Below, in pieces: positions 17,821-50,489 of a stretch of 64,000 bases of DNA (positions are counted from its first letter, which is position 1; each line of letters opens with the position of its first letter). A program made the position numbers and the translations under genes. The DNA lies in assembly GCA_038871515.1 (NCBI GenBank), contig JAVZHX010000002.1, positions 141,815 through 205,814 of the forward strand. The letters are read 5' to 3'. The notes beneath the pieces are model-generated. The model was given only the letters and a program-made list of their open reading frames with translations, searched no databases and had not been told where the DNA came from. Origin of the DNA: Candidatus Micrarchaeia archaeon (GTDB lineage: Archaea > Micrarchaeota > Micrarchaeia > Burarchaeales > Fermentimicrarchaeaceae).

Positions 17821-17824
17821 ACGC

Positions 17825-22876: not shown

Positions 22877-22895
22877 TTCTATTTTTTTCTTTTCT
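22877..22895 (+). terminator. oligo-T tract (ctattttttcttttctg)
   Basis: T-rich run directly after the stop of the small poly-Glu ORF. Archaeal terminators are oligo-T tracts. Confidence 0.25.
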
Positions 22896-26638: not shown

Positions 26639-26695
26639 GGAGGCACCATAGTGTATATAATCAGATAATATGAATAAACAAACATAAATACCTTT

Positions 26696-30000: not shown

Positions 30001-32463
30001 TCTTTTTGCGTAGAGAGGTTTCTTCTCAAATATTCCCTTAAGTTTCTTCTGCTTTTCTTCAACTTCCATTTGCTGCTTTCCAAGCAATCTCATAAAGTGT
30101 TGTTTCTTCATCTCCTCTTCCGAAAGTTTGGATATTGTAGGGCCAATAATATTCTCAAACTCTGATGCAATCTGCCTTAAATTCTGGGTTTTCTGAAAAC
30201 CGCTTGCCGCAAATGCAACCCCCCTTATTGCAAGCGCTTCCGGCGTATAGTGCCCTTTTGCTGCCTCTGCTCTTTGACCCCACATATCAAACAAGCGCTC
30301 CACGCCAAGCCATGTTGCTCGGTCATGTTCCGGAGTTAAATAGGGTTTTACAGTATGGCGATAGTACGAATCCTCTAGCTTTCTGTAACCGGACATAACT
30401 TTAAGCGCTTTCTCAAGTGGTTTTACTCGGGCTTGGTGCTCCTTCCAAGTGATGTTATGTTTGTTGTAATATAGGTCATCCAGATTGCTTATTTTTTCTT
30501 TTATAGCTGATATTGCCTCCCTTGTCATATTCACTTTGTCACTCCTATACTGCCCCATCAAAGATGCTCCAATTATGCTTGGTGCAATTTTTGACAACTC
30601 ACTCATTTTCTTATCAAGTTCCTTTGTTTTTTTCTTGTACTCCTCAACTGAAATTTGCCCAGCGACTAACTTCGTGTTCAGATCTTTCAGCTGAGTGCGT
30701 ACTTCATTTAATTTATCCCTAGCATCTGGAGGAAGCAGGATGTTGTTAACTTCCCCAATTTTCTTTTGGAATTGATTTATTTTATCAGTCAGCTCATCGC
30801 TTCGGCCTTTCTTACTGAGCTTTTCGATATCTTTCGCCAGCCCCTTTATCTCCTTTTTTAATATGTTGAGTTCTCTCTTCTGCGTTTTGGTAAGTCCTCT
30901 CTTCGATTTTGTATCTCTCAAAACTCTATCGATAATCCCTCCCCTCATATCTTCCATCAGTCTTTTCTGATGCTCAACAGTGTCTCTCAGCAACCCTGCA
31001 ACTTGTGCAGGAGTGAGGGTTGGGTCCTTGAGCATTGCAAGGTTTTTCTCAATATGCTCTCTTCTTCTTTCTGCAATAGTAACTCTTGCAATGATATTTG
31101 GCTTGAATCTCGCTCTTTCATAGCGCACCCTTGCAACTCTGTATGGAACATTCTGCAGTAAAGATGAAACAAACCCAGTTGTGCTTGAGATGAACCAACC
31201 CTTTAGGGTTGCTTTCAGAACTTCCTTTCTGCTCAACTGCTCAGGGTTGAAGACTCTTACGAGCATTCCCCTCTGGCTGAGCCGATCATATCTTTCTTTT
31301 AACCCTTTCAGTTTTTTTTCATCCTCCTTGCTGAATTGTGATGGGTTCTTATTCTTTTTCTCTTCAAGTTTTCGGATTTCTCTTCTAAGTTTCCATCTTT
31401 GAGATGGTTTTACTATAATTGTTGATATTGGGTATTTCACTCCTAGGTAGGCAAAGCTCGCGGCAGCAGCAGGTGCATATGCCATCATCTTAATTCTTCC
31501 AATCACCCCCCCAACATCCGCAAGCTGTTTTCTGTATTCATCCATCTGCTTGATTAAACCATCATAAACTGCAACTTTCTTTTCGGCTTCTCTTATTTTC
31601 TTATTCAGAGTTGCAACATCCTTCCCCAACTTAGTTCTGTAAAGTCTTTTTTCAAGGTTTCCAATTTCCTTGCTGAGAGCAGCAAGACGCGCCATATCCT
31701 TGTCACTAAGTTTCTCTCCTCTCAGCTGCTTTAACTTTAGATTAGCATGCTCTCTCTTCTTCTCTCTTATGGCTTCCCTTAGACTGACAAAATTTTTCAG
31801 GTTTTTCAGCTCTCTTTTTTCTTGGGCAGTTAATCCTTTATCCTTTTTCTTCTCCTCAAGCTCTGTTATTCTATTCCTTGCCCCTTGTAGGTTCATTACA
31901 CTAGCAAGACTGGTTGCCAACATACTACGTAAGCTCTTCACTTCGCTTTCTTTCCTAGTCTTCTCTCTTTCAATTCTGCCTTCATAACCGCCACCCCTTT
32001 TTCCCTTTGATAACGCGTATAAAGCACCCCTATCTGCCATTGTTTTTAGTGTTTTCACACCTTCCTTTGCTACCTTTGAACCGTACTTCCCACCACTCGC
32101 CTTTGAAACAACTGTTGCAGCACCCTTTGCCATCTTGTTAGCAACCCATCCAAAACCTCTTGTTAGGTAATTTCCTCCTCCGAGCTGATCCCTCTTCTTC
32201 GCAACAGTGTCAAATCCACCAGAGGTGAACGATTTAAAGTGGTAGGAAGTCGACTTTATTTCAGCAGGTGGTTTTGAGATGGATATGTCAAACCCAACAA
32301 GGGGGCTTCTTCCCTGAGCAATCATACCCGCCATAAGCAGAGCAAGAAGGAGGAAGAAGGGGAAGCAGATTGATATGTCGCCCATGCTCGCGTATGAAGC
32401 ATTTGCAAGCATTATGAGCAATAACAAAACGAATGGAACTCGGAGTAGTGGTTGGTTAACCAT
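27100..32463 (-). CDS. giant (1787 aa) coiled-coil membrane protein
   Basis: N-terminal pair of hydrophobic helices, about 1300 aa of K/E/R-rich heptad coiled coil, central TM hairpin (LLFAATVAAPFAMPFIGVGAAAVITAGAYGIYGA), then an approximately 350-aa Trp/Tyr-rich C-terminal globular domain. Confidence 0.6.
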   Translation of the reverse strand: MVNQPLLRVPFVLLLLIMLANASYASMGDISICFPFFLLLALLMAGMIAQGRSPLVGFDISISKPPAEIKSTSYHFKSFTSGGFDTVAKKRDQLGGGNYLTRGFGWVANKMAKGAATVVSKASGGKYGSKVAKEGVKTLKTMADRGALYALSKGKRGGGYEGRIEREKTRKESEVKSLRSMLATSLASVMNLQGARNRITELEEKKKDKGLTAQEKRELKNLKNFVSLREAIREKKREHANLKLKQLRGEKLSDKDMARLAALSKEIGNLEKRLYRTKLGKDVATLNKKIREAEKKVAVYDGLIKQMDEYRKQLADVGGVIGRIKMMAYAPAAAASFAYLGVKYPISTIIVKPSQRWKLRREIRKLEEKKNKNPSQFSKEDEKKLKGLKERYDRLSQRGMLVRVFNPEQLSRKEVLKATLKGWFISSTTGFVSSLLQNVPYRVARVRYERARFKPNIIARVTIAERRREHIEKNLAMLKDPTLTPAQVAGLLRDTVEHQKRLMEDMRGGIIDRVLRDTKSKRGLTKTQKRELNILKKEIKGLAKDIEKLSKKGRSDELTDKINQFQKKIGEVNNILLPPDARDKLNEVRTQLKDLNTKLVAGQISVEEYKKKTKELDKKMSELSKIAPSIIGASLMGQYRSDKVNMTREAISAIKEKISNLDDLYYNKHNITWKEHQARVKPLEKALKVMSGYRKLEDSYYRHTVKPYLTPEHDRATWLGVERLFDMWGQRAEAAKGHYTPEALAIRGVAFAASGFQKTQNLRQIASEFENIIGPTISKLSEEEMKKQHFMRLLGKQQMEVEEKQKKLKGIFEKKPLYAKRAELKEECENLKSQLEKLNPNTKEYKAKEKELQAKMEELARTNLQIRDAKKELAKAERNVELITTHLMLNQALLAQRRLEAFDRDRDEVKRNLERGINTIEEKLRKDEENKKKIEDRMMKLEKAGKKNTNDYKKLEDRLHKLELSILKKENDINDLRRAIDRRRFDLQRAVDETAERTIIRVGGQKILRDREAVLSEMSILRADALEKPNPYVLGLIKTLGVEKASEVKKYNNTDKLEGEERERVKSQYEKALRATYSKLKNKWDKLETINLAEWTRRRMEEAGTSLGGSETGMHRDLIEVQAIITKLEKDKEELKEKAGIGVIDRSKLKEFGAKNIEEYEKVTKELDAHLKKKERTLSSMLYLTNLTYGQFLDPTTMDKYVKLYREIEEARKTLPETAKYELQEVNLRIRAVEAELESARKAGWRERIEMLENRKKELEAERDKLTNVLEFGELPLTQPEREKRYERLKRMEDKLERFALVMQAAELLQREAASGGLMQSQTAEILKKLREEYPEDKRKGRGFWEEARWWAGQLDRSVSENALAKYEATAVKLRNEIKGISSEISELEKKLKEKKGKIDAEAVELNSELQEKLEERREKQKELIEVCKDWKSFKDTYDATYMYAPYRKMTQWAGPGSEERIHKFIEESVDKDLRIRLGIHGVSSERATGFASKAVENIEKFAVQHGKTLLFAATVAAPFAMPFIGVGAAAVITAGAYGIYGAKTGTRKVGEWEMTGYPTSTGEEGVRRTMNKIIEWSSHLTGRGSGGPARTMQSVWESQVYGTAYVWKGLRLNRYWDIEPWQEALELPDVGLPWHIRAFKSIFEGPSTYLSYWGKRLAISAEWPGGWDELKLTMAENPRVPPEVQKVIQYQMMQMYGSIIPIPYPKQVREMLGSELGTTVAFYEPAKDVIAIRKFAYNPAGIRYGLIPRSFREERGFSIAADQAIKRIDQLVTTQMSYGSISRARY

Positions 32464-32484: not shown

Positions 32485-35400
32485 TTACTTATTAAACTTT
32501 CGTTTTTTCATCAAAAGCAGCAAAGCAACAATCAGTATAAGCGGTTCAAGCACAGGGAAGCTGCCGATTGCAACAGATACGCCACCTGCGTAGAATGGTT
32601 TGATTTCTATGGAGGGAGCATAAATATCTGTTCCCCAGAAAACTCCAAATAGTAACCTTCTTCCAAACCCATAGATTTTGAAGGTTGTGTTCACGTGCCC
32701 TGTTGCATTTGTTATGAAGTACGGGTTGCCGGTTTCCAAGTGAGAGAGTATTCCGTACTGATGACAGACTGGGTTAGGCAGACAGTCACCAGTGCCTCCA
32801 GGTTCATCTATCCAGTCTGGGCAGGAGCAGTTGCTCTCCTCAGGTGCAATTGGGCAGACGCCTGAAACAGCTGGGTTGCAGTTAACTGGGTCAAGCTGGC
32901 TTCCATCCCCGTACAGAGTTCTGCTTGAGTTCTGAACGTACAGCTCCATTACTTGACCTGGAAGGGGTGTATTGGGCTTCTCCTCAGGCTTATCCCATCT
33001 CTGGTATAACAGCTGCGCAGTCACATACACAATTGTCCTGTTTATGTTTTGTGGGTCTCTGACTGTTTGGACTTGCATTATTATGGCAGTTGGCTGTCTC
33101 AACCAGATTGTGTATGGAACAATGAATGTATTGTTGAACCTATCAAAGAATCTGTAATGGAAGTTGTGCAAGCCCAATGAGTCATTATCCGGTATATTCA
33201 ATACAACTGAATCCTGCTGTGAGTAGATGAAGGTGCCTGATTTGTTCTGGTAGAAACCAAGCACAAAGTCGTTTGGAACAACGTTAATAACACCTATCTG
33301 CTCCGGAGTAACCGCAGTTGATAACCCATCCAGATAAAGAGGAGCAGTTGTTACATTGAAATGCTCGCCTTCGTTCCCTTCAATTTCTATAGAGAGCACA
33401 TGTGTAAATGTTTCGTTTGTCTCAAATGAAACAAGGGAAACGCCTGTGGAGGTGGTGACATTGAACGAGTTGCTGAAGCCAACTGTCACGTCGTTTTCTG
33501 CTTTCAGCATCTCATTGGTAATCCCCTCACCAAGCATCACATAACCGCTCCAAACTCCATTGTAGAATGGGCCAATCTGCCTTGGGCAGATGTTGTTTCG
33601 TGTGTAGGCACCGCCAGTATCAGATAGAGTTGCATTGCCGTTGAATTGGCAGATATTGCCAGGTGGGTAAATTCCAAGCGCATCAACACTACATCCATAA
33701 TGATACTGCTCGTTCCACGGCGGTTTAGTTTCGTCTGTTATATCTTTAAACCAGAAGCATACCGCATCAACTGTCCCGTTTGATAAACTTATCTCGTGCA
33801 GGGGGCCCGAACCGGGAGCTGTTCGGGCGTAGAATACGTAGCTTGAATTATCCTTATATGGGGGCAGTATCTTCTCCCAGCAGTCAGTAGCATTTGATAC
33901 ATAAAGCTCTATTTCGGTGTAATCCTTTGAACATGTTATGTTAAACCTGAATTCCTTAACTGATAGTGATCGGCCGAACGTTCCAAAGATGCCGGGGACG
34001 AAACCGCCATAGGAGCTTGACTCCCAGAAACATGCTGTTTTTCCATCTGGCGTACCAAGCATATTTGTGGGTGGAGCATCACTTCTGGAGGGGTTTAGAC
34101 AACCGCTTGACTCAGCGTTGATAACTGGGTAGGTTGTCCCCAAAGGAACAGTGCGGATTCTTACTTGGAAAGGAACTCCTGCGGTTTGGGGACTTGTAAT
34201 TGGGTCAAACTGAAAACCACATCCTAGTAGAACTGAATCTGGTTGCACTACTGCTGGGCTTGGAAGGGCACATGTGAGTGCAGGTGTGCCAACTGAACTC
34301 TCTTCAACAATTACGTTGTTGTTGCGCGTTCCCTTTATTGTATACCCAATTGTCCTGTCAACTGATATCATATTGGAGTTTATTCTCAACCTTCTTGGGT
34401 TTGGGAGTATTGTTGCAATTGAGGAGTACGCAGTGTAATTTGAACTTGGCAAGGATATTCTTGCCAGCTCATTTTTTGTAGTTGCAGTTCTGAATATCAG
34501 GGTTTCACCTTTAATTCCATCCTTCACCTCAATTATATAGACTGCGCTGTATGGGCCACCTAAACCAAGATAGTCCATTGAGCTGTAACTGCTAAGTTCA
34601 ACCGAGCCATTTATCAAATTGTAATTGCCGCTTGTGTCTGTCCCAACAATCGTTATCCTTGTTTTGTTATTTGAATCATGGTCCCTTGTTGATGCAACTT
34701 CAATTGATTCATTGAAGAGAGAGACATCGATTCTTGGGCATACAAAGGAAGGCGCGCATGGCGGACCACTTGGGTGCATCCCAACACCACATTTTAAATA
34801 ATCAGATTGGCAGAAACCACCGATGCATTTTCCCTCAGAACAGTTGATGTCCGCGGTGCATGGAATACAACTTCCAACTGTGAAATTATCAACGCGCAGT
34901 ATCACGTCAGGGTCGGTATAAACCTCAAACTGATCACCAAGATAGCCCTTCCCGCTGACAGAGCTTATGAACATGAAGTTTCTGTTCCTTGGGTCGTCTG
35001 GAACAACCTGCACCATTCCTCGTGGAGGCATATATGTGAATGATGGAACCGCTGTGTAGGTATTTACATCGTAGTAGGCATACTGCCCTTTCCATAGGAA
35101 AAGCTCGCCTATTATGCTTGAACCGAATGGGTCTTTGGAGAATTGGATAAGACAGCCATTTTCACATCCACCCCAAACTTCCACAAGTAGAACATCTGTT
35201 TCGCTAGCAGCGTGAGGGGCAGCGGATACCCAACCGTCGGAGGTTTGGTATGAAATTATACTCCAATCCATCGGAGGCCAGGAGAAAATACGGAATGTGC
35301 CGTTGCCATCAGAGCGGAGATAAAGGCTGGTGGAGGTTATACCTCTGAATGGAAGTGGGTTAGGCAGATCTTTACCCATGAAATCTGCAGCTCCAGATAT

Positions 35401-38400
35401 TTTGCTTTCATTATCATTTTCAGGTGGGATGTCAATTCTTCTGCTTGCGTTGAATCCATGAATTGCGAGCAGGGTTGGGCCGCTTATCTTAACTGGTTTG
35501 ATAAGGAGGGATGAGGGGAACGGAGCGTAAGGTTCACCAAGGAGCGGGTACCTAGTGGGTGAGTCTATATATTCATCATACCCGGTTTGCGATACAACTG
35601 TATTTGGCGGTATAGACTTTTTGAACCAAGCGCGCGTGTTGTGGCACATACTGCTATTCCTTCCAAAAATATCCTCAAAGCATATTCCATTATCAGTTGA
35701 GAGGTTTGCGGGCATTATGAAGAGGGATGCTTCCTCAGGTGCTCCTGTTATGGATATTGCGTGGATTATGTAGCAGTAACCAAATGGAGTGTAGCTTGAA
35801 TTTGTTACTGTTATTGAGTAAGTTACATTAACCCTTGCGCTTGTCTCGCACAGTATTGAAACAAGCAAGGAGGAGACGTTTGTTATTGCTTGGTAGTAAT
35901 AATCTGAAGCACCATCAGGTGGTGGATCCTGTGGAGCGAATGGCAGTGGGTTTGGCTCCTTGTGCACTGGACTGAACACATATGCAAAAGGATAGCTCCA
36001 GTTCATTGTGTTATTGAATGGAATTGTTTTGTTTTTTACCACACCACCTTCAACTACAGTTAAAACGTACGGGTTTTTGTTAGGATCGTTTCCAAACATG
36101 TTCGTAGTTGGATACTCAAAAATATAGAGTGGATTTTGGTGCCCGTACTGATCAACAGTTGGTGTTGTTGAGATGTATTGATAACCGTAATACTGATTCT
36201 GCATTATGTTGAATGTTTTTCTGTAGCTTGCGTTAAGTATCCACTGGTGGTCATCTGGCGGAGCCATGTAGTTGCTTACTCTGTCCATCATAACGAAATG
36301 CTTGTAGAAGAATCTGTTTGTAAGGTAGTTGTAAGCAAGATAAGGAAGGGTGCTTGGTGTTTTCTTTGGTGGGGTTAGGTAGGCTGGCCTTGTGAGAGAG
36401 AAGTGGGAGCCGCCTCCCTCAACAAGCCTCTCAAGGTGGTTGCTGTAGCTAGTTATATTGAGCTGTTTGTTTATCACGGAGGTGCCGGAGAGGGAGCCTC
36501 CGCTTGGGCAGCCGTTGGAGTATTTTCTTATTGTAAACGTGTAATCAAACCTCAGGAACGCAGTGATGTTTGTTGCAAGGAAGTTTCTTCTGTAAATAGG
36601 GCTGAGCGGGGCGGAGAGCTTAACCACTGGACTTCCTGGAGCAATACTCCCAGAAGTGAGTAATCCCTCTATGTTGGAGTATTCTGTTGTTTTTGTTTTC
36701 TCAACCTCTCCCTCGCATACGGAGGGCTCAACTGCTCCTTCCTGAGAGCAACCCTCGCATGAAACTCCTGCCATCATTGACTCCTTTATTAAATCCGGAT
36801 ACCCTATTACATCATCTGGGTGGTCAACCGCTGGTGACTCCACCATTGAGCCAGAATAAACAAAGGAGTATGAGCCACCTGGGAAATTATAGCTTTGGTC
36901 TTGAATTCCTGGTTGGAATTTGTACTTGACTACCATGTTGCGTTCTCCTTTCAATGCAATGTATACGTTAAACTTGTTGTCAACATCTATTCCATGGGTT
37001 TCGGATGATTTACCTTGCACATACTGCAAGCCTGCTGAGAGTAGGCCCCATGGGTCGTACCATGCTTTCCAGAGAGTAACGTATTCTTTTGGCTCAATCA
37101 CAACTTTCGCTCTGTACTGCTTCCCAGGAGTTTCAATTGTGTCAAATGCAAGAATTCTAGTCATCTCATATTCTTGCGTGTCGTACCAAAGGCATGCATT
37201 GCAGTTATTTGGATCGGGGCACCAGAGGCATCCCCCATCCTGAGTGCAGCCAGTGCCTGGGTTTCTGTAACAACCAATTTTAAATCCGAATATATCTAAA
37301 CAGCCCGGCATACAGCAACCCAAACACTCCATTGGGAAGCCACTACAGCCAAAGTAACCAGTTCTAACTGGAAATGCCATATAGTCGATCACAAACAAGT
37401 AACCCTTTCTGTATTTAATCCCCCTCAGATAGTGATACCCTCCTTCCTCACCCCAAAAGCTCTGAGTTTCATTTACATTATCAACATATGTTTTAGTTCC
37501 TGCTTCATTTGTGCATGGCGGATCTAAAATAACTCCTAGTGGGTTCAGCTCTTGTAATTCAATTCCACCATCACCCCCAAAGATGCTGATTTTAGAAACT
37601 TCCTGGGCTGGGTTGGATGCGTTGTACTGATGTATAAACGGATAACCAACCCAGAAGCACCCCCACCACTCGCAGTGGCGTTTCTTATCCCTCACTACAA
37701 ACAGACTTGCACCATCCTCGGTAACCGCTATATCTCGCGCTGTTCCCTCCCAGGCTTCTGTGCAGTTGTTGCTTGCATTCAGCTTGAACTCCTTATCGTA
37801 TTTGTTTATGCAGATGTGGTTGAATACTGTATCGGGGTAGGTGTTGCCAAGCACGTACAAATTGCCCCAGCTATCCGTGTCTAAACCATACGGGAAGAAG
37901 TACTGGCCATCCTCAGTAATTGTATCAATTTCAGTTACAAAGTGAATTGTTGGTGGGTAACTTCTAACTATTTTCACAACTTGCACTTTGGGTGAGTTAG
38001 TTAATGCAATGAATATATTGCCTCTGTTATCATACGCAATTGCCTGTGCATTCGAATCAATTAGGGGTGTGGCGCCAGGTATTGGCTTGCCGTTTATCAA
38101 CCCATTATAATCCTCCAGCCATGAGGAGGGTACCCTTAAAGTGAACTTTCCAAGCCTCCCTCCATCTTTGTGGTCAACAACAAGCAGTGCTTCTGGGGAG
38201 CGCAACTCGTGTGGGTTGAGAATTGAATCGTTTGTTATGTTGTATGGCTCAAGCGCAGTTAAAGGAAGAGTTACTGTTATGTTGAAGTAATCAGTATATA
38301 CATTTCCTGGTGCGAACTGAACGTCATATCTATCACTGCCAACGCACACGCTTGATGTTCCGCTGAATGGGTAGTAACCCCAACCCCAGAGGACTTCTGG

Positions 38401-40587
38401 ATGCTTGAAAGTATCCTCCAAATCCTCCAAACCACCAGTCCCTTCGTAGTTTAGGTGATCTGAGATTCTCAAATCCGCCTCTGGGTTGTATACGAATTCC
38501 TTAACGCATACTGCAACAGGCGCTTTGTCAAACTGAATGGCACTCATGTTGAAGCATGCCTTGCCGGAATGGTAGCTTTCCAAGCATATGCTGTAGTTCC
38601 CTTTAATTTTACGCGTTGCAGGATCGTAACCTATCAACAAATTTCCGATATCATAGTTGTGCTTCATCACGTAGCTTACCGGCGGGGCAACTGAGGAGTC
38701 AACAATTGTATCAACTGGTGGAGTGAGAGTTGGTGTTGGTGGAATTGTGTAGTTAACACAACCAAGCGGTTTTATCATAACAACTGTGAACTCCTTGGAT
38801 TTCAGGACACTAGTTGATGGGTCAAATGCAGTTATATTGCATTTTACGTTTCCACTGCTGTTTGCGATAATATCTGAAAAAACTGCAACTCCGCGGTTTG
38901 CGATGGGAGTTATATTCAAACTTACATTGCTGGGAATTGTTTTTAGAGGTGGGCAGGTTAGATTAACCTCACCTGCGAAGTCAGTTACTGTGTTATTCGC
39001 AGAGTCCTTCATAGTTGCGATTACTGTGAATGGGATTTCTGTAAACACAGCTGGTGGGTCAACTTCTATGTAAATATCAGCTATCCCAGCGCTGCTCACA
39101 CTCAGAGAAGCAGAGCCCTTTAAAGTGTCTGATGTTGTAACTGATAATCTATAGATGCCGGTGATGTTGAAGAATTTAAGCGAATCAGCAGAAGAAACAG
39201 TATAGGTTCCAACTCCATTTGTCACTGGAACATTTTGTGCTATAGTTTCGGTCGCAAGTTGCACCTCCGGACGCGCTTCTCGTATAATATTGACATTTCC
39301 GTTATAACTTGTATCAACCTGACCGTTTGGAAAGACAGCTTGAATAGTTATGTCAAAGGATTGACCAACCTTTATGCTTGGAGGGGTGATTACAACTACA
39401 AAACTAGTTGCTTTTGGAACTGGAGGGGCAGGGTAGTTAACTGTCACCCGAGTAGAACTATCATCCAAAACGCCAGTCTGAGAGAAGGAGTAATCATCAA
39501 ATTTAGAAGCTGTTTGAATGGTTACCTCCTTCACGAAACTATCCAGCTTGGTATATATATTGCCCTCCGCATAGCCATAAGCTAGAAGATTGAATGTGTA
39601 CTTGCCTCCTTCAGTTCCGTTGAATACGTAGAAGCACATAGAAGCGCTTTCAAAGGTGCATCGCTTCGGATCGTATGAAGCAACCAAACCTGTTGAGTTG
39701 TATATATCCTGGTAGATTCCAACTGCTTTTGAAAACTTTCCGCCTCCGTCATCTTGTGATTTGAACGGCTCGCCGTCATATGAGGAGTCACAGATGTTTC
39801 CGTACTGATCCCTGATTTCTATTGTGATATCAAAATGCTCATTTGGATTTTTTGTCAGAACTGTTGGGGACGTAACAACAATTTGATATGGGTCAGCGTG
39901 GGATACATTGACGCTTGTTGTTATCGTGTTCTGCGTGCTAATTCCGTTTAAGCATTTTGGGGCAACTGCCTTAAGGTTTGAGTAGGTGCCAGGTGAGGTT
40001 GTTATTCCAGAGAAAGTTGTTGAAGCAATCCCACTCCCATCTGAGGTGGGTGTTTGAGTTGCTCCCCATGGAGAGGTTATGCTAACGCTCCTTCCAGATA
40101 CTGCGCTGCCTCCTGAATCTGTGAGCTTCACCGCAACATCCAAATTTCCTCCTGCCTTCTCCTTATAGTAACCATTTTTATAATCAGATGTTGATTCCCA
40201 CGCTATCTTGCAGTAGAGCGGGTTTATGACATAGTTGGTATCGGTAAGCTCCTTATCATCATAGAAACCATGCTCTGCTTTGCAATGCCACGTATGTGTT
40301 CCATCATCATCCACCCCGAAATAATGTGAGTATTGATAATCAGAGCCCGTCCAACCTGCTGGATGCGGAGTTCCATCAATTATAACACTCACAGTAGCCC
40401 CAGTTATATCATTTCCCGAGGAGTTCGTGTAATCGCATTTGAAAGTAACAGTCGTTCCTATATTTCGTGGTGAGCCAGGGCTTGCGGACTGAGTTAGACT
40501 AGACGCTGGGTCAAGCGAAAAAGAGAAGGGAAGGAGGAGTATTAGCGATAGGAAGCAGAGGAATTTTTTAAAGACAACTCTCCCCAT
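32485..40587 (-). CDS. giant (2700 aa) Cys-rich, sequon-rich cell-surface protein with C-terminal TM anchor
   Basis: Signal peptide MGRVVFKKFLCFLSLILLLPFSFS, many beta-rich Ig-like segments and Cys clusters (CIPCTADINCSEGKCIGGFCQSDYLKCG), dozens of N-x-S/T sequons, C-terminal LILIVALLLLMKKRKFNK membrane anchor. Confidence 0.65.
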   Translation of the reverse strand: MGRVVFKKFLCFLSLILLLPFSFSLDPASSLTQSASPGSPRNIGTTVTFKCDYTNSSGNDITGATVSVIIDGTPHPAGWTGSDYQYSHYFGVDDDGTHTWHCKAEHGFYDDKELTDTNYVINPLYCKIAWESTSDYKNGYYKEKAGGNLDVAVKLTDSGGSAVSGRSVSITSPWGATQTPTSDGSGIASTTFSGITTSPGTYSNLKAVAPKCLNGISTQNTITTSVNVSHADPYQIVVTSPTVLTKNPNEHFDITIEIRDQYGNICDSSYDGEPFKSQDDGGGKFSKAVGIYQDIYNSTGLVASYDPKRCTFESASMCFYVFNGTEGGKYTFNLLAYGYAEGNIYTKLDSFVKEVTIQTASKFDDYSFSQTGVLDDSSTRVTVNYPAPPVPKATSFVVVITPPSIKVGQSFDITIQAVFPNGQVDTSYNGNVNIIREARPEVQLATETIAQNVPVTNGVGTYTVSSADSLKFFNITGIYRLSVTTSDTLKGSASLSVSSAGIADIYIEVDPPAVFTEIPFTVIATMKDSANNTVTDFAGEVNLTCPPLKTIPSNVSLNITPIANRGVAVFSDIIANSSGNVKCNITAFDPSTSVLKSKEFTVVMIKPLGCVNYTIPPTPTLTPPVDTIVDSSVAPPVSYVMKHNYDIGNLLIGYDPATRKIKGNYSICLESYHSGKACFNMSAIQFDKAPVAVCVKEFVYNPEADLRISDHLNYEGTGGLEDLEDTFKHPEVLWGWGYYPFSGTSSVCVGSDRYDVQFAPGNVYTDYFNITVTLPLTALEPYNITNDSILNPHELRSPEALLVVDHKDGGRLGKFTLRVPSSWLEDYNGLINGKPIPGATPLIDSNAQAIAYDNRGNIFIALTNSPKVQVVKIVRSYPPTIHFVTEIDTITEDGQYFFPYGLDTDSWGNLYVLGNTYPDTVFNHICINKYDKEFKLNASNNCTEAWEGTARDIAVTEDGASLFVVRDKKRHCEWWGCFWVGYPFIHQYNASNPAQEVSKISIFGGDGGIELQELNPLGVILDPPCTNEAGTKTYVDNVNETQSFWGEEGGYHYLRGIKYRKGYLFVIDYMAFPVRTGYFGCSGFPMECLGCCMPGCLDIFGFKIGCYRNPGTGCTQDGGCLWCPDPNNCNACLWYDTQEYEMTRILAFDTIETPGKQYRAKVVIEPKEYVTLWKAWYDPWGLLSAGLQYVQGKSSETHGIDVDNKFNVYIALKGERNMVVKYKFQPGIQDQSYNFPGGSYSFVYSGSMVESPAVDHPDDVIGYPDLIKESMMAGVSCEGCSQEGAVEPSVCEGEVEKTKTTEYSNIEGLLTSGSIAPGSPVVKLSAPLSPIYRRNFLATNITAFLRFDYTFTIRKYSNGCPSGGSLSGTSVINKQLNITSYSNHLERLVEGGGSHFSLTRPAYLTPPKKTPSTLPYLAYNYLTNRFFYKHFVMMDRVSNYMAPPDDHQWILNASYRKTFNIMQNQYYGYQYISTTPTVDQYGHQNPLYIFEYPTTNMFGNDPNKNPYVLTVVEGGVVKNKTIPFNNTMNWSYPFAYVFSPVHKEPNPLPFAPQDPPPDGASDYYYQAITNVSSLLVSILCETSARVNVTYSITVTNSSYTPFGYCYIIHAISITGAPEEASLFIMPANLSTDNGICFEDIFGRNSSMCHNTRAWFKKSIPPNTVVSQTGYDEYIDSPTRYPLLGEPYAPFPSSLLIKPVKISGPTLLAIHGFNASRRIDIPPENDNESKISGAADFMGKDLPNPLPFRGITSTSLYLRSDGNGTFRIFSWPPMDWSIISYQTSDGWVSAAPHAASETDVLLVEVWGGCENGCLIQFSKDPFGSSIIGELFLWKGQYAYYDVNTYTAVPSFTYMPPRGMVQVVPDDPRNRNFMFISSVSGKGYLGDQFEVYTDPDVILRVDNFTVGSCIPCTADINCSEGKCIGGFCQSDYLKCGVGMHPSGPPCAPSFVCPRIDVSLFNESIEVASTRDHDSNNKTRITIVGTDTSGNYNLINGSVELSSYSSMDYLGLGGPYSAVYIIEVKDGIKGETLIFRTATTKNELARISLPSSNYTAYSSIATILPNPRRLRINSNMISVDRTIGYTIKGTRNNNVIVEESSVGTPALTCALPSPAVVQPDSVLLGCGFQFDPITSPQTAGVPFQVRIRTVPLGTTYPVINAESSGCLNPSRSDAPPTNMLGTPDGKTACFWESSSYGGFVPGIFGTFGRSLSVKEFRFNITCSKDYTEIELYVSNATDCWEKILPPYKDNSSYVFYARTAPGSGPLHEISLSNGTVDAVCFWFKDITDETKPPWNEQYHYGCSVDALGIYPPGNICQFNGNATLSDTGGAYTRNNICPRQIGPFYNGVWSGYVMLGEGITNEMLKAENDVTVGFSNSFNVTTSTGVSLVSFETNETFTHVLSIEIEGNEGEHFNVTTAPLYLDGLSTAVTPEQIGVINVVPNDFVLGFYQNKSGTFIYSQQDSVVLNIPDNDSLGLHNFHYRFFDRFNNTFIVPYTIWLRQPTAIIMQVQTVRDPQNINRTIVYVTAQLLYQRWDKPEEKPNTPLPGQVMELYVQNSSRTLYGDGSQLDPVNCNPAVSGVCPIAPEESNCSCPDWIDEPGGTGDCLPNPVCHQYGILSHLETGNPYFITNATGHVNTTFKIYGFGRRLLFGVFWGTDIYAPSIEIKPFYAGGVSVAIGSFPVLEPLILIVALLLLMKKRKFNK

Positions 40588-40643
40588 TCCACCACGTCTT
40601 ACATTTTTATTATATTATAATATGGATTAATTAATAACTTTTG

Positions 40644-43064
40644 TTATCTCCCGAGCATCACCCCAAAGTTTCCAGGGTGCACGGGCGTTATTCTCCCATT
40701 GCTTATCTCGGATTTTACTATAACCGCAAGGGAACTGTATGACAGCTCAAGCTTTTTAAGAACTTCCTCCATCTCTCTTCTATTTTCAAATACAATGAAA
40801 TTCTTGCCTAAGTCAATAAGCGCAAGTGCTCTCTTAAATGCGCTTTCATCCGTGTATATATGAATGTATATCCCTTCTCCTTTCACAGTTGCGAGCATAT
40901 CGCAGTCCTTCCTGCTGTTCAGATCAGTGAATGGAATTGCATTGTTCACAAAGAAGCTCCTTAGTAACCTGAAAAGCGCAAGGTATTTCATGCTTCTCCC
41001 GCTCTTTTCCTCCCATAGTTTTAAACCATATAGGTTAACTGCTTTCACAACATCCCCGCTTTCAATCAGCTCATTCAGAATTTTTTCTAAGTTGTAGTCA
41101 GTTATCATTATTGGAACTCCTTTATGAGTTATCTTTCTCCTCATCTCATTCTTCAGCTCCTGTGCGCTCAGAGGCATAAAACTCCATTTGTATTCTCTGT
41201 TGACAGAATCAAACAAGCTGAGCAGGGAGAATTTGGAAAGCGGAATCACAACTTTCTCCATAGGTGGAAAATCGGGCACATCAATTGTGTATACTGGTTT
41301 TTCAGGTCTTCTGAGCGCAACTGCCGCCCCTCCCACCACAAGAGTTAAAACTACAATTGCCACGTTAATTGGGTTGTCAAACCAGCCGGGTGGTTTTGCT
41401 CTTTTCACATTCACCGAAATTAACTCACCACCAACATTGAACTTGAATGTGTATTCCCCAAATCCCAAGTATATATCTGGGCGCGAGTAGTTGAAGTTCC
41501 CTTCTGAGTCTGTTGTTGATGGAAGTGGCTCTCTGAATAAATCCTTTCCAGGTGTGTTGTTCACAGTTATCAAAATTAATCTGTTTTTTAACGGCTCGGC
41601 TATCTCTTCCCCAAAACGATTATCTGGGGGCAGAACTGCTCTGAAAGTTATGAACTGTGGCTCATCCCAAAACTGCAAGGTGGGGGTGATGAGAATTTGG
41701 GGCACAATGAGCAGGGATTGGGCGTATACGTAACCATCATCGTCCTCTGCCCTCAGTATATAAACTCCTCTCTCAAAATCAACCACAAAATTGCTTGAGA
41801 AGGAATACTCGCCCTGTATGAGCCTTATTCCTCTCTGTGCAAGTTGCTTGCCAACAAGCTGCATATCCTCATCATACACCGCAACGCTTATGTTTATGTC
41901 TTTTGGTTGCGAGAAGTTTGCGAGGAGTTTGAAGTCTATCGTGAAGTCCGCCTCTCCCCTTGCAACCTTTGATTTGTGGAGCATGTTGCCAGAGACAGTT
42001 TTTGTTATTCTTCGCTCAACGACGGAGTGGAAAGGAAGGTTGTTTGTTGTGTTTGTTGTCAGGTATATTCTAGCCCATCCTTCGGGGTAGCTGGAGGGAA
42101 GGAAGAAAATCATTGTTTTATTCGAGTTTGATTCATTGATTTTTGATGATGGAACCAGGAGAGTGGCGGTTGTGAGTGGAGATTGCCATTCAACCTCGTA
42201 TATTGCTCTCGCCACATCCTCGCCTGCCTGAGTTCCATTGTAGCTCCAACCAATGTCAATGCTGCGTGGGAATGCCAGCAGATAACCATTCTCATTTTTC
42301 ACAACGGACAAAGAACCGCTAACAATGGTTTCTGAGATGCTGAAAGCTGGTTTTTTCAGCCTGTATGGTGGTTTTGTTAACAAATCCGTTCTTGGCTTGT
42401 AGTTTATACCGTACTGGCGAAGCTGCGATGGCGAAACTGGCTGAACCGAACCATCTTTATTAAGCGATGAGGAGAGCTCACTTCCAATGAATATAACAAC
42501 AAACCCCTTTTTCATAAGTGCGCCCAAATCAGTTCCACTTTCAACTCCGACAAGCTGACTTGGTATTTTGCCTGTTGGAACAATGAGTATCGAGGGGCGG
42601 GTGAGAGCGTCAAGCTGGTATAGTTTAATCTGATTCAGAGTTGATTCAGGTTCTATTAAACCATACTGTTTCAAATTTTTCTCCAGTGAGTCTTTGAAAT
42701 CGCTCAATCCATCGCACTCAACACAACCGCGGAAATCACCTGAGGAATAGTCAAGCAGGTATATGTCTTTTGGCACCTGATCCGCAAGAAGCTCTGCTCT
42801 TATTTCTACATTTCGTATATCTTTTCCATTAAGCTGGGAGAGGATGTAAACAATGCTTTTCTGCTCTATTCTGGAACCACCGGGAGTTGCTTTTACAGCT
42901 CCGTAATCCAAAACGCCGGAATCAAAGATTATGAGTTCCATTTGGGGGGTGACATTGAGGGGAGGGGGGCGGTAAGGCGGAAGCATTAACAGAACGAAAT
43001 AGAGAGCAACCACCCCTATAATTAGAAGTATGAGCAACAGCAGTAGAATCTTTTTCTTGTTCAT
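40644..43064 (-). CDS. bitopic/tritopic membrane protein (806 aa) with large extracytoplasmic and C-terminal cytoplasmic domains
   Basis: N-terminal TM (ILLLLLILLIIGVVALYFVLLML), about 540-aa outside domain, second TM (VAIVVLTLVVGGAAVAL), about 210-aa C-terminal domain. Confidence 0.55.
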   Translation of the reverse strand: MNKKKILLLLLILLIIGVVALYFVLLMLPPYRPPPLNVTPQMELIIFDSGVLDYGAVKATPGGSRIEQKSIVYILSQLNGKDIRNVEIRAELLADQVPKDIYLLDYSSGDFRGCVECDGLSDFKDSLEKNLKQYGLIEPESTLNQIKLYQLDALTRPSILIVPTGKIPSQLVGVESGTDLGALMKKGFVVIFIGSELSSSLNKDGSVQPVSPSQLRQYGINYKPRTDLLTKPPYRLKKPAFSISETIVSGSLSVVKNENGYLLAFPRSIDIGWSYNGTQAGEDVARAIYEVEWQSPLTTATLLVPSSKINESNSNKTMIFFLPSSYPEGWARIYLTTNTTNNLPFHSVVERRITKTVSGNMLHKSKVARGEADFTIDFKLLANFSQPKDINISVAVYDEDMQLVGKQLAQRGIRLIQGEYSFSSNFVVDFERGVYILRAEDDDGYVYAQSLLIVPQILITPTLQFWDEPQFITFRAVLPPDNRFGEEIAEPLKNRLILITVNNTPGKDLFREPLPSTTDSEGNFNYSRPDIYLGFGEYTFKFNVGGELISVNVKRAKPPGWFDNPINVAIVVLTLVVGGAAVALRRPEKPVYTIDVPDFPPMEKVVIPLSKFSLLSLFDSVNREYKWSFMPLSAQELKNEMRRKITHKGVPIMITDYNLEKILNELIESGDVVKAVNLYGLKLWEEKSGRSMKYLALFRLLRSFFVNNAIPFTDLNSRKDCDMLATVKGEGIYIHIYTDESAFKRALALIDLGKNFIVFENRREMEEVLKKLELSYSSLAVIVKSEISNGRITPVHPGNFGVMLGR

Positions 43065-43255
43065 TTAGCACCCTCTACTTTTAATCCAAATTTCTGCAGC
43101 AAGGATATCACTTTCTTCCTGAACTCACTTTCCTCTTCCTTGTATTTTTTCACAATTCTGAAACGCTTTATGTTCTGAAACCTCTTTCTGGTGCGCAGCA
43201 GATACGTCTCCTTTTTAACTTGAGACTCCAGTATGCTTGGGGTTTCCTCCATCAC
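43061..43255 (-). CDS. small basic protein (64 aa)
   Basis: Short ORF with stop/start overlaps to both neighbours in the array. Confidence 0.3.
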   Translation of the reverse strand: MMEETPSILESQVKKETYLLRTRKRFQNIKRFRIVKKYKEEESEFRKKVISLLQKFGLKVEGAK

Positions 43256-43256
43256 T

Positions 43257-44060
43257 TCACCCTATAGCCTCAAGATACCCCTGCATAACCATTGAGTTGA
43301 GCAGGTGCTCCACTCTTGATTCTAATACGTTATATGTTTTGGCAAACTCGCTTATGTTTATCTCGTTATGATGGAGCTCAAGCCACTCCTGTATTTTCAC
43401 CTTCAGCACATCATCAGAGGGAGATTCAACCTGCTTCAACCTGAGAGTGAGCTCATCGTTCTTTGCTTTTAATTCAATTGCCTCGTTTGTCATCTTTGTG
43501 ATTGCTGCGTTGAGAGCTTCCACCTTCTTCTGCAAGGAGAGGAATTCGTTATTGAGTATGTCGTATTTTGAGAATATTTCATCATACGTTGATGCAGCAA
43601 ATTCAGTTATCTCTGTTAGCGCATTGCGCAGTATTTGGTAGAACTGCTTGTGATTCGTTTCATATTCATCTTCTATAAGAGTCATAACATTTAGGAAGTG
43701 CTTCAGCACATCTATCTTCCTTTTTCTTATGCTTATGCCAGGAACAACTGAGTAAACAACCTCAATCTCATTCGGGCGCAGGTAGATTAGTGAAAAGAGG
43801 TAGGGGTTCTTTTTTATATCCCTGCTCTCAACATTCAGCGCAGCAACGTAGTCTGATTCAACAGTTAGCATAAGGGAGCTTATTGATGAGAGGGATTCGG
43901 CAAGCTTTCTTAAATCGCCTTTTCTACTTGCAGGTAATTTGAAGCCGTAGATTTGAGGCGCGGGAGTTTCATCCTTAACCTCCTTCTTCTGCTCCTTTTT
44001 TTCAACTGGTTTTTCAGGTTTCTTTTCCATGTTTCTCAACCTTTGGGTAATATGATACAA
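43257..44060 (-). CDS. hypothetical protein with Lys/Glu-rich N-terminus and coiled coil
   Basis: 267-aa ORF (possible start at internal MEKKPEKP about 44030). Co-directional in array. Confidence 0.45.
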   Translation of the reverse strand: MYHITQRLRNMEKKPEKPVEKKEQKKEVKDETPAPQIYGFKLPASRKGDLRKLAESLSSISSLMLTVESDYVAALNVESRDIKKNPYLFSLIYLRPNEIEVVYSVVPGISIRKRKIDVLKHFLNVMTLIEDEYETNHKQFYQILRNALTEITEFAASTYDEIFSKYDILNNEFLSLQKKVEALNAAITKMTNEAIELKAKNDELTLRLKQVESPSDDVLKVKIQEWLELHHNEINISEFAKTYNVLESRVEHLLNSMVMQGYLEAIG

Positions 44061-44367: not shown

Positions 44368-44369
44368 AT

Positions 44370-50481: not shown

Positions 50482-50489
50482 TTTTTCAC

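Follow-up and report, generated by a model that had tools for sequence, protein, structure and literature searches.

Giant surface proteins that contain a VirB4/TraG domain have been described in Nanohaloarchaeota and proposed to bind hosts (PMC10266531). These SPEARE-type proteins (SVXNc_0300, BNXNv_0298, and that of Ca. Nanohaloarchaeum antarcticus; PMC10266531) are 6000–9400 aa in length, carry about 75 tandem Ig repeats, and have a cytoplasmic VirB4/TraG ATPase fused via a TM helix. The protein examined here (the giant protein, below) is encoded by an uncultured Candidatus Micrarchaeia archaeon, on contig JAVZHX010000002.1, of which a stretch of 64,000 nucleotides (the window) was analyzed. 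Both kinds of protein occur in DPANN hosts and combine a signal peptide, Ig-like domain(s), a β-propeller, further β-sandwich modules, and a TM helix, and both are genetically coupled to VirB4/TraG-type ATPases, with a proposed host-contact role for a T4SS-like process. Unlike the SPEARE proteins, however, the giant protein has 2700 aa, is non-repetitive and Cys-rich, ends seven residues after its helix, with the ATPases encoded as separate genes, and has an NHL instead of a WD40-like propeller; its locus also includes VirB2-like pilins and a six-gene polytopic array. Of the SPEARE hallmarks, the array of about 75 tandem Ig domains and the fused ATPase are absent, and the signal peptide and propeller in a DPANN genome are present. 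The likeness is one of features only, sequence homology between the two not being established, and the locus is a variation on a pairing known from DPANN, that of a T4SS ATPase with a giant surface protein.

The Ced (Sulfolobales) and Ted (Thermoproteales) systems (PMC9905601, PMC11868833) are, like this locus, chromosomal, domesticated T4SS derivatives of archaea. Shared components include a VirB2-like pilin with a signal peptide (as TedC), a VirB4/CedB-like ATPase, a second, paralogous CedD-like ATPase, multiple polytopic membrane proteins, and an adjacent HerA-like gene, as in Ted loci. Neither system has a giant surface protein, cell–cell aggregation in the Sulfolobales being mediated by separate Ups type IV pili, and the components of our locus, including its VirB4-like ATPase, score far below the Ced/Ted NCBIfam equivalog cut-offs (65–68 vs. 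600–700 bits). [quoted passage not shown] It too belongs to ultra-small, host-dependent lineages, is phylum-wide, vertically inherited, relaxase-less, and of the single-membrane type, has VirB2-like pilins in some members, and is thought to have been co-opted for symbiosis, as we propose for the locus described here. In that bacterial system, “No adhesins, such as PrgB, were detected” (PMC12102498), whereas the giant surface protein is integral to the expanded (type A) form of the archaeal locus.

Among adhesins of T4SS, PrgB (aggregation substance) of Gram-positive bacteria resembles the giant protein as a large surface protein encoded inside a T4SS cluster of a single-membrane cell, and the function of both PrgB and TraN is to bring donor and recipient envelopes together. 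TraN of F-like plasmids is a Cys-rich mating-pair stabilizer with conserved cysteines, as found in the giant protein. The anchors differ (a TM helix in the giant protein, LPXTG/sortase in PrgB, outer-membrane insertion in TraN). No homology connects the giant protein to either one by Pfam, an LPXTG motif and PrgB-type antigen I/II adhesin domains are absent from it, and it is chromosomal, archaeal, and predicted to be N-glycosylated, not plasmid-borne.

The Surrounding T4SS-Like Locus

The apparatus beside the giant gene is encoded on the chromosome by a T4SS/Ced/Ted-like locus that spans about 31 kb and whose co-directional genes are tightly spaced or overlapping, running from position 57312 down to 26144 of the window. 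The features are:

57806 to 59317, minus strand: PMT_2 (GT-C) glycosyltransferase, next to the cluster and of uncertain membership in the system
56568 to 57312, minus strand: two tandem VirB2/TrbC-like pilins (56962–57312 and 56568–56909), by Pfam and PDB profile
49477 to 56503, minus strand: six tandem polytopic membrane paralogues, at the position expected for VirB6/CedA; co-occur with the giant gene
47823 to 49465, minus strand: m279 and m268, paralogues with two TM helices and a cytoplasmic domain; two copies in type A loci, one in type B
44670 to 47813, minus strand: VirB4/TraG-like ATPase, interrupted behind Walker A by a LAGLIDADG intein
43061 to 44669, minus strand: core accessory genes p99 (paralogue of the ATPase C-terminus), p117 (Zn-ribbon and two TM helices), p257, and p64
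40644 to 43064, minus strand: p806, with a signal-anchor, an ectodomain of about 530 aa, a TM helix, and a cytoplasmic domain of 220 aa that is conserved
32485 to 40587, minus strand: giant gene, for a predicted type I membrane glycoprotein of 2700 aa and about 297 kDa (without glycans)
27100 to 32463, minus strand: p1787, a strongly basic coiled-coil protein with a membrane anchor; in every case the next gene downstream of the giant gene
26144 to 27094, minus strand: p130 and p164, two small soluble proteins whose conservation goes with that of the giant/p1787 module
24918 to 26147, plus strand: second HerA/CedD-like ATPase, convergent with the operon

The VirB4-like ATPase matches Pfam DUF87 and AAA_10 above their cut-offs, and P-loop_TraG is recorded for its orthologues; its best NCBIfam matches are CedD (5.5e-19), CedB (3.8e-18), and the VirB4-like family conju_CD1110 (4e-15). 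It is 92% identical to its counterpart in Ca. Fermentimicrarchaeum limneticum, near which the archaeon belongs. Annotation as Micrarchaeota/DPANN is carried by over 1000 of its close relatives, which bears out the guess of a DPANN host in a preliminary description made from the sequence alone. The pilins have the signal peptide, two hydrophobic helices, and short basic loop of the VirB2/TrbC type. Pfam T4SS_pilin is matched by six of ten family members (best E 3e-6) and TrbC/VirB2 by five of ten (best E 1e-5), the window pilin itself scoring 21.2 and 20.9 bits, below the curated cut-offs of 26.6 and 27.9. Comparison with PDB profiles returned TrwL as sole match (E = 0.0095), and a three-sequence pilin alignment returned nothing. 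For the polytopic paralogues, no Pfam match and no PDB profile match at E ≤ 10 was found, and similarity to CedA, TedA, or VirB6 was not detectable; the published links between CedA and VirB6 required HHpred or structure comparison. All nine sequons of p806 fall inside its predicted ectodomain, and every Micrarchaeota locus examined has p806, which lies directly upstream of the giant gene wherever the latter occurs. The p1787 protein lacks sequon enrichment and is therefore probably cytoplasmic.

By these sequence matches, the locus is identified as T4SS/Ced/Ted-like, with VirB2-type pilins and a VirB4-type ATPase, and not as a type IV pilus, a correction to the “pilus/secretion locus” first described. 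A TnpB gene lies near the locus, and the window contains another C-terminally anchored, sequon-rich surface protein (61401–63260, 16 sequons).

Topology and Composition of the Giant Protein

The preliminary reading of a single 8.1-kb open reading frame with a signal peptide and a C-terminal anchor ending in a KKRK tail held: the frame occupies 32485–40587 of the minus strand and yields 2700 aa from an ATG start. An AT-rich spacer, possibly intrinsically promoter-like, and a GGTGG ribosome-binding site lie upstream. The N-terminus (MGRVVFKKFLCFLSLILLLPFSFS, then LDP) shows n-, h-, and c-regions arranged as in Sec signal peptides and is kept in orthologues, and the C-terminus consists of one hydrophobic helix (about 2668–2692) followed by KKRKFNK. 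The parts of the protein, all on the minus strand, are:

40513 to 40587, minus strand: aa 1–25, Sec-type signal peptide (n-region KK, h-region, c-region SFS; hydrophobic window 1–19)
38773 to 40512, minus strand: aa 26–605, distal β-sandwich (Ig-like) region, the least conserved part (34–44% identity in the mid group)
38068 to 38772, minus strand: aa 606–840, well-conserved Cys-containing domain, no fold assigned
36838 to 38067, minus strand: aa 841–1250, six-bladed NHL-type β-propeller, split by an 11-Cys insertion (aa 1081–1132)
34288 to 36837, minus strand: aa 1251–2100, central all-β region, no fold assigned, with an 8-Cys knot at 1907–1950
33688 to 34287, minus strand: aa 2101–2300, variable module, missing from distant orthologues
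33448 to 33687, minus strand: aa 2301–2380, Ig-like repeat unit
32593 to 33447, minus strand: aa 2381–2665, membrane-proximal signature domain (YQNxSG...FYDRFNNTF...LPT, Cys-rich insert, YGFGRR)
32485 to 32592, minus strand: aa 2666–2700 and stop, with P[FY]Y[AS]GG (a motif specific to the family), the TM helix, and a basic tail in the cytoplasm, (K/R)RKFNK

The protein is both Cys-rich and sequon-dense, as had been noted. It contains 65 Cys (2.4%, vs. 1.4% in 12 cytoplasmic-type proteins of the window), clustered at 1081–1132 (11 Cys), 1907–1950 (8), and 2570–2608 (6); 46 of the 65 are invariant across five orthologues, and the mature chain has an even number (64). The 57 N-X-S/T sequons compare with 26.5 ± 4.5 expected, a count reached in none of 2000 composition-preserving shuffles, and 32 of the 57 are kept in all five close orthologues. 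Glycosylation and disulfide bonding would be consistent with this composition. Self-BLAST found no internal repeats, no similarity to p806 or p1787 was found, and neither the whole protein nor its 600-aa pieces matched Pfam or NCBIfam above threshold.

The C-terminus has the tripartite shape of archaeosortase substrates (PFYAGG, TM helix, KKRK). No NCBIfam model, those of such substrates (PGF-CTERM, PEF-CTERM, and similar) included, matches it at E ≤ 1, and the P[FY]Y[AS]GG motif is confined to the giant family among 3566 ORFs of the collected loci; as the motif is limited to this family, its interpretation as a general sorting signal was rejected for now.

Domain Architecture and Conservation Gradient

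The NHL β-propeller, which had escaped the preliminary description, is solidly supported at the profile level. A 14-orthologue profile compared with PDB retrieved the NHL propellers of Pizza6 (E = 9.4e-14, three stretches), Pizza7H (six stretches), PknD (1.3e-7), and TRIM71, and Pfam SBBP and NHL are matched in four and three of the 14 members, respectively. Such propellers are typically ligand-binding platforms. The “many Ig-like beta modules” proposed earlier are weakly supported: the low-confidence models are all-β, and the Ig-type Pfam matches (Invasin_D3/Big_1, E 0.002–0.02) are sub-threshold. AlphaFold2 models of aa 126–1325 and 1461–2660, built from five-sequence alignments, have mean pLDDT of 36 and 35 and are unusable, and a PDB profile search with the five-sequence alignment returned nothing. 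Assignment of aa 26–605 rests on the weak Invasin_D3/Big_1 matches, a first module with pLDDT 70–88, tandem MG/Ig Foldseek matches, and the divergence profile. With the first model, Foldseek returned only tandem β-sandwich arrays (TM below 0.2).

Residues C610, C668, C678, C694, C748, W734, and W736 are invariant in aa 606–840, and aa 1251–2100 has no Pfam or PDB match. The module at aa 2101–2300 also occurs in the C-termini of small surface proteins, and a CBM32/discoidin-like fold for it is a weak lead from modeling. The unit at aa 2301–2380 (profile positions 845–915) is present in 10–29 copies in large multi-repeat proteins, one of which (P0136) has a bacterial type IX secretion sorting tail. 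Conservation rises from the distal N-terminus to the membrane-proximal aa 2381–2665, the most conserved part (66–68% identity in the mid group); relative to P0004, the values are 28–60% (mostly 30–45%) and 70–86%. Apart from its propeller, the family is without Pfam, NCBIfam, or PDB representation, and a solved or confident structure would probably reveal new folds.

Distribution and Co-occurrence

The giant gene lies between the genes for p806 and p1787 in all of about 20 independent loci, an order kept in every placeable orthologue from 82% to about 25% identity. Presence and absence against the polytopic-paralogue array, in the 30 loci evaluable on both sides, gave six with both, 24 with neither, and no discordant locus; in the sole apparent exception (L023), a Cys-rich signal-peptide protein begins at the expected place. 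The claimed link to the neighboring apparatus is thereby strongly supported. No orthologue was found away from the array, and of the refuting condition set in the preliminary description (orthologues apart from the array, a match to a conventional S-layer protein) neither half was observed. Because p806 identity to the query is 36–83% in all giant-bearing loci and 25–31% in all giant-less ones, the co-occurrence is phylogenetically confounded and may reflect a single gain or loss.

The ATPase core occurs throughout Micrarchaeota, and most members keep it with no detectable giant protein, so the core machine does not need the latter. The giant protein itself is rare: an exhaustive HMM search of 1.84 billion representatives gave about 14 clusters at 50% identity. 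Word-indexed searches under-report the family (four matches with the full protein, three with a C-terminal profile) and missed the F. limneticum orthologue (56% identity), for which the exhaustive HMM search and pattern scans were needed; a first GTDB scan using patterns from the full-length alignment was over-specific and found nothing.

Proposed Role and Alternative Explanations

Gene order and co-occurrence tie the giant protein to the machine. Our preferred reading, to which we give even odds, is that in a lineage of Micrarchaeota a T4SS-derived (Ced/Ted-like) apparatus, encoded on the chromosome, serves for transfer between cells and that the giant protein is its extracellular arm, making contact with the partner; from the features above we infer the adhesion, the docking partners, and the nature and direction of the cargo. 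The protein would be exported via Sec, heavily N-glycosylated, and disulfide-bonded, and tethered through its C-terminal helix with only the conserved seven-residue basic tail in the cytoplasm. The conserved membrane-proximal domain (aa 2381–2700) would dock it on the machine, most plausibly onto its obligate gene neighbors, the bitopic p806 and the basic, cytoplasmic coiled coil p1787. The parts reaching outward would be the NHL propeller and the distal, fast-evolving β-sandwich modules. These would bind the surface of a partner or host cell and keep the two envelopes together while the VirB2-type pilus, polytopic channel proteins, and ATPases of the VirB4/CedD type move cargo. A broader scenario, which we offer tentatively, is that Micrarchaeota, like Patescibacteria, possess a phylum-wide domesticated T4SS, composed of a VirB2-type pilus and a VirB4-type ATPase, that one deep lineage enlarged with the channel-protein array and a 300-kDa glycoprotein arm that recognizes and docks a partner cell for transfer of DNA, protein, or metabolites.

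The strongest competing explanation, though in our view an unlikely one, is that the giant protein does not bind partners as an adhesin but is a structural, envelope-spanning scaffold or conduit of the machine. It could be a collar or stalk, for instance, taking the pilus or channel through the S-layer and replacing the bacterial VirB7/9/10 core complex. Lack of repeats and a conserved length and architecture are commoner in fixed structural components than in adhesins, which expand by repeats. The giant protein is single-copy and non-repetitive; even at about 25% identity its length and architecture are kept, along with numerous invariant Cys, Gly, and Pro residues, and it forms an obligate triad with p806 and p1787; it appears along with the six polytopic paralogues and the m268/m279 duplication, as in an enlarged machine. 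Against the adhesin-like character first proposed, the conserved, non-repetitive build fits a fixed machine part at least as well as a classical repeat-rich adhesin, and no adhesion domain of known specificity was found in the protein. Homologues of the outer-membrane core complex are also missing in archaea (discussed in PMC11868833), and cryo-ET of a cultured Micrarchaeon revealed envelope structures of unknown composition, including a 21-nm barrel under the S-layer (PMC11329633). On the other hand, a fast-evolving distal third and a lineage-specific inserted module are not expected of a purely internal scaffold, NHL propellers typically serve to bind ligands, and a pattern-limited GTDB scan found no giant orthologue in a genome titled Microcaldus, so the barrel cannot be assigned to the giant family.

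That the giant protein is a general surface glycoprotein (S-layer-associated, protective, or nutrient-binding) merely located beside T4SS-like genes is improbable. Sequon-rich, C-terminally anchored proteins are common in archaea, with another in this window, and the spacer and ribosome-binding site upstream could give the gene its own promoter, but strict synteny at deep divergence and perfect co-occurrence with the array would not be expected, and an envelope protein should be widespread in the phylum, not limited to some 14 clusters. S-layer proteins are recognized by TIGR01564/TIGR01567-like N-/C-terminal domains, a mass of 40–200 kDa, few sulfur-containing amino acids, and phylum-wide occurrence, and the Micrarchaeota protein SLP_Mh (101 kDa) carries S-layer domains and is poor in sulfur-containing amino acids (bioRxiv 10.1101/2021.04.28.441871). 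The giant protein, with no S-layer domain match in Pfam or NCBIfam, about 297 kDa, and its high Cys content, was rejected as an S-layer protein on these grounds together with its few clusters and synteny.

A mating adhesin of an integrated conjugative element passing through the genome is very improbable. The T4SS-like gene content, the ATPase intein, and the nearby TnpB gene are compatible with such an element, and Gram-positive conjugative elements do encode large surface adhesins (PMC12102498). Against this, no integrase, relaxase, or coupling protein was found above Pfam threshold in the locus or window (the second ATPase has a sub-threshold TrwB_AAD_bind match), the housekeeping flanks (Memo and an AAA_18 kinase) recur in related genomes, and the ATPase core is above 60% identical across more than 100 Micrarchaeota clusters, indicating vertical inheritance. 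Moreover, IMG/VR contained no relatives, the ATPase shares only 22–29% identity with the VirB4/TraC proteins of plasmids, the GC content stays flat along the locus, and tRNA and Rfam scans of the window were both empty, so there is no tRNA integration site. The locus is chromosomal and vertically conserved and not a conjugative element, an option rejected given the conserved flanks, the vertical core, and the missing relaxase and integrase.

Equally remote is an enzyme or toxin tethered to the surface (a protease, a glycosidase, or a polymorphic toxin) for attacking or feeding on a host, which is recommended by protease domains once proposed in DPANN giant proteins (Hamm et al. 2019, discussed in PMC10266531) and by Foldseek matches of the second model to galactose oxidase, sialidase, and CBM32, but that model has pLDDT 35 and its matches have TM below 0.2 except for those of carbohydrate-binding type over roughly 140 residues, catalytic domains are absent in Pfam, NCBIfam, and PDB profile searches, and the C-terminus anchors the protein in the membrane and is no toxin module.

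Under the broader scenario, the giant protein would determine which host or partner these DPANN archaea choose, and no extracellular component of a T4SS-like machine would have been identified in archaea before it. Recognition, attachment, and material exchange by DPANN remain largely obscure at the molecular level, and the locus provides a parts list (pilins, ATPases, candidate channel proteins, and the giant glycoprotein) conserved enough for antibodies, tags, and subtomogram hypotheses. It also extends the Ced/Ted story beyond Crenarchaeota, and its parallel in Patescibacteria, whose chromosomal T4SS is essential, suggests that ultra-small symbionts share a strategy or have converged on one.

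The giant surface protein and its locus

The single open reading frame of 2700 amino acids proposed in the preliminary description is real: it begins with ATG and occupies 32485..40587 on the minus strand, and many independent assemblies carry the gene intact and at similar length, so that it is no assembly artefact. The encoded protein (the giant; amino acid positions are its own) opens with a Sec-type signal peptide (MGRVVFKK-FLCFLSLILLLPFSF-S/LDP) and closes with a single hydrophobic helix followed by KKRKFNK; both of the ends that had been proposed can thus be read in it. The 56-bp spacer upstream of the gene (40588-40643; TTATTAATTAATCCATATTATAATATAATAAAAATG) is very AT-rich, with a Shine-Dalgarno-like GGTGG four bases ahead of the ATG, and may be an internal promoter from which the giant is expressed independently of the upstream genes.

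The gene is part of a run of 20 co-directional genes, from 57312 to 26144, separated by tiny gaps or overlapping. In order from 57312, these are:

two VirB2/TrbC-like pilins
49477-56503, minus strand: six paralogous polytopic membrane proteins (the array)
47823-49465, minus strand: m268 and m279, paralogues with two TM helices, 43% identical
44670-47813, minus strand: VirB4/TraG-like ATPase, split by an intein
44370-44669, minus strand: p99, which stands alone and is paralogous to the ATPase C-terminus
p117 (a Zn-ribbon and two TM helices), p257 and p64
p806, then the giant, then p1787
p130 and p164, which close the operon

Outside this run, on the opposite strand and convergent with the operon, is the gene for a second, HerA/CedD-like ATPase.

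Six of ten pilin family members match Pfam T4SS_pilin (best E 3e-6) and five of ten match TrbC, and the sole PDB match is the R388 pilin TrwL. The ATPase is 22-29% identical to plasmid VirB4/TraC genes, and its best NCBIfam matches (CedD, CedB, and the VirB4-like CD1110 family) all fall well below the equivalog cut-offs. Comparable T4SS-like systems are Ced and Ted, the DNA-exchange systems of Sulfolobales and Thermoproteales (PMC9905601, PMC11868833). The six polytopic paralogues match no known family and have no detectable similarity to VirB6, and their assignment as VirB6 is therefore positional only; they share invariant W, W, R..F...R..G and YP positions and a C-terminal LGxDxDxxGLxRL motif, and one of them (53631-55526) has an N-terminal ectodomain of 340 aa that includes 13 consecutive glycines. 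The p99 protein is 38% identical to the last ∼85 residues of the ATPase (E 3e-18). The intein (LAGLIDADG, ∼540 aa) lies directly after the Walker A motif (GITGAGK/S...VHN/S); it also occurs in two metagenome loci (L017, L021) and is lacking in L002, L004, and Ca. Fermentimicrarchaeum limneticum (L006). Next to the giant, p806 has all nine of its sequons within the predicted ectodomain and is most conserved in its cytoplasmic part, and p1787, a very basic coiled coil, is probably cytoplasmic because its sequons are not enriched. A PMT_2 (GT-C) glycosyltransferase gene (57806-59317, minus strand) borders the cluster and is also present at a distant, giant-less Anstonellales locus (L007, 7427-9145); this adjacency may mean that the machine has a conserved tie to an enzyme that glycosylates proteins or lipids.

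The DPANN affiliation guessed at in the preliminary description is right: an intein-free orthologue of the ATPase is 92% identical to an F. limneticum protein, and of its more than 1000 relatives, those with a named source are nearly all annotated as Micrarchaeota, Micrarchaeia, or Anstonellales. In the F. limneticum genome (CP058998.1) the cluster is likewise present, and the giant orthologue in it has 2707 aa and 56% identity.

Co-occurrence of the giant with the membrane-protein array

A word-indexed protein search returned only four homologues of the giant, and an exhaustive HMM search with its C-terminal half gave ∼8 full-length clusters at 50% identity and, in addition, distant proteins of 2600-2900 aa that have the C-terminal domain in common. 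A GTDB scan with this domain identified six genomes (Sv326, Sv174, LacPavin, MFD04408, "ainarchaeum sp. STA_44", and Alinen MAGs). In five of the six loci a p806 homologue precedes the giant (exception L012), and in five a huge p1787-like gene follows it (exception L014, where the downstream ORF is without a match).

A metagenome scan anchored on p806 yielded 80 loci, in which all ORFs were annotated with HMMs of the cluster genes. Type A loci contain the array, m268 and m279, the ATPase, p99, p117, p257, and p806, then the giant and p1787. Type B loci contain a single m279-like gene, the ATPase, p117, p257, p806, and nothing else, with three to four tandem VirB2-like pilins directly upstream in some (L057, L059); Anstonellales and Gugararchaeum genomes have the same minimal core. 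Among the 30 loci whose flanks were long enough on either side, array and giant were both present in six, both absent in 24, and discordant in none, which upholds the proposed tie to the neighbouring apparatus and is phylogenetically confounded: p806 is 36-83% identical to the query in type A loci and 25-31% in type B loci, so a single ancient gain or loss may underlie the association. Linkage persists down to ∼25% identity in the giant itself. One further locus, L023, just under the flank-length threshold, has the array; the giant HMM finds no match in its 1.5 kb downstream, where a divergent Cys-rich protein with a signal peptide starts at the expected position and runs off the contig.

The m268/m279 duplication is found only in loci that also have the giant and the array, with one exception (L034). 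The minimal core (m279-like gene, VirB4-like ATPase, p117, p257, and p806) is present in every sampled Micrarchaeota locus (L016-L095; L007-L009), the ATPase is >60% identical across >100 clusters, and the core appears to be a phylum-wide T4SS-like system.

Architecture and conservation of the giant

As had been claimed, the giant is rich in Cys and dense in sequons. Its 65 Cys (2.4%; 12 cytoplasmic-type proteins from the window have 1.4%) comprise one in the signal peptide and 64 in the mature chain, with three dense clusters (aa 1081-1132, 1907-1950, and 2570-2608), and 46 of them are invariant among five orthologues. The 57 N-X-S/T sequons compare with 26.5 ± 4.5 in shuffled sequences (0 of 2000 shuffles reached 57), and 32 are kept in all five close orthologues.

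Neither Pfam nor NCBIfam has an above-threshold family for the giant or its 600-aa pieces, the weak matches being Invasin_D3/Big_1 at aa 151-202 and a β-propeller repeat near aa 900. Self-BLAST found no internal repeats. A profile of 14 orthologues (24-82% identity) clearly matches six-bladed NHL propellers in the PDB (Pizza designs, PknD, TRIM71; best E 9e-14), and individual orthologues also give NHL or SBBP matches. The propeller, demonstrated at the level of sequence profiles, spans ∼aa 841-1250 and contains an 11-Cys insertion. The many Ig-like modules of the preliminary description are plausible and not demonstrated, since the evidence consists of weak matches and low-confidence models: AlphaFold2 gave all-β models for two 1200-aa segments (pLDDT 36 and 35), and the Foldseek matches of the N-terminal one, tandem MG/Ig-like sandwiches only, are a lead. 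Two features lie toward the C-terminus:

33688-34287, minus strand: variable module of ∼150-200 aa (aa ∼2101-2300)
32485-32592, minus strand: P[FY]Y[AS]GG, TM helix, and basic tail, with the shape of a tripartite sorting signal

The variable module is absent from distant orthologues and enlarged by insertions in another (P0004), and ∼150 aa of it are common to the C-termini of small surface proteins with CarboxypepD_reg/SpaA-like domains (P0139, P0148, P0153). Weak CBM32/discoidin-like Foldseek matches (TM ∼0.5 over ∼140 residues), again a lead, fall somewhere in the C-terminal half, and only by conjecture do they belong to this module, which would then possibly be an acquired glycan-binding module.

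Conservation climbs from the distal N-terminus toward the membrane-proximal C-terminus. Among orthologues of middle divergence, identity is 34-44% over aa 26-605, mostly 53-62% over the core (aa 606-2100; 45% in the Cys-rich insert 1076-1140), and 66-68% over aa 2381-2700; against P0004, it is 28-60% (mostly 30-45%) in the N-terminal 600 aa and 70-86% in the last 300. The C-terminal signature (YQNxSG...FYDRFNNTF...LPT, a variable Cys-rich insert, P[FY]Y[AS]GG, TM helix, basic tail) is retained by the most distant members and confined to the giant family among 3566 ORFs from all collected loci; NCBIfam C-terminal sorting models do not match its last three elements. The tail, (K/R)RKFNK, is invariant across close and middle groups. 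Taken together with the features of p806 and p1787, this is what one would expect of a protein whose C-terminal end is fixed on a conserved machine and whose N-terminal end faces a variable external ligand.

Possible roles of the giant

That the giant belongs to the machine in some capacity is probable. In the best-supported reading, to which we give an even chance, it is the arm with which the T4SS-like apparatus contacts a partner outside the cell. Its function would then resemble that of the ectodomain of the giant proteins of Nanohaloarchaeota (PMC10266531) and of the surface adhesins that belong to T4SSs of single-membrane bacteria. The main rival is that it serves this machine structurally, as a collar or conduit, and not as an adhesin; the non-repetitive sequence and conserved architecture favor this rival, and we consider it possible, if rather doubtful. 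A generic surface protein is unlikely: orthologues were not found to be widespread without the array, and the giant is unlike the known Micrarchaeota S-layer protein (101 kDa, few sulphur-containing amino acids, S-layer domains; bioRxiv 10.1101/2021.04.28.441871). An adhesin of an integrated conjugative element is also unlikely. A search of the locus gave no relaxase, coupling protein, or integrase, related genomes share its flanks (Memo, AAA_18 kinase, PMT_2), and its GC content is flat; judged from sequence, it is no mobile element and instead a T4SS-like system that sits on the chromosome and is inherited vertically. It is similarly unlikely that the giant is an enzyme or toxin.

A 21-nm barrel of no assigned identity has been seen in the cultured Micrarchaeon ARM-1 (PMC11329633); it cannot be assigned to the giant family, because a pattern-limited GTDB scan with the C-terminal domain returned no genome titled Microcaldus. 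In the searchable literature, the F. limneticum genome paper aside, we found no description of the giant family or of a Micrarchaeota VirB2/VirB4-type system. That DPANN archaea can have giant surface proteins linked to T4SS ATPases is, as a general idea, already known from Nanohaloarchaeota (PMC10266531). The giant reported here differs from those in its protein family, its architecture (not fused, without repeats, rich in Cys, and equipped with an NHL propeller), and its fuller T4SS-like gene set.

Other features of the window

A TnpB gene (Cas12f1-like TNB domain) and an unannotated 310-aa ORF (21729-24027, plus strand), located between the genes for the AAA_18 kinase and the second ATPase, are present in this genome only, and the same spot in L002 and L004 is without them; the region resembles a recent insertion of the IS200/605 type. 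Genes for the modified mevalonate pathway of archaea, named from Pfam family matches, occur at 1624-18807 of this DPANN genome and suggest a capacity to make isoprenoid lipid precursors:

GHMP-kinase family: probable mevalonate kinase
FMN_dh family: probable type 2 IPP isomerase
amino-acid-kinase family: probable isopentenyl phosphate kinase
AcnX, a UbiD-like decarboxylase, and a flavoprotein

Two further secreted proteins with C-terminal anchors are encoded at 61401-63260 (minus strand) and 9969-11297 (plus strand): one of 619 aa with 16 sequons (5.4 ± 2.0 expected), and a Cys-rich one of 442 aa (12 Cys), whose end (...LLFAGGAIIILVLLYLFREVRK) faintly echoes the FYAGG motif of the giant.
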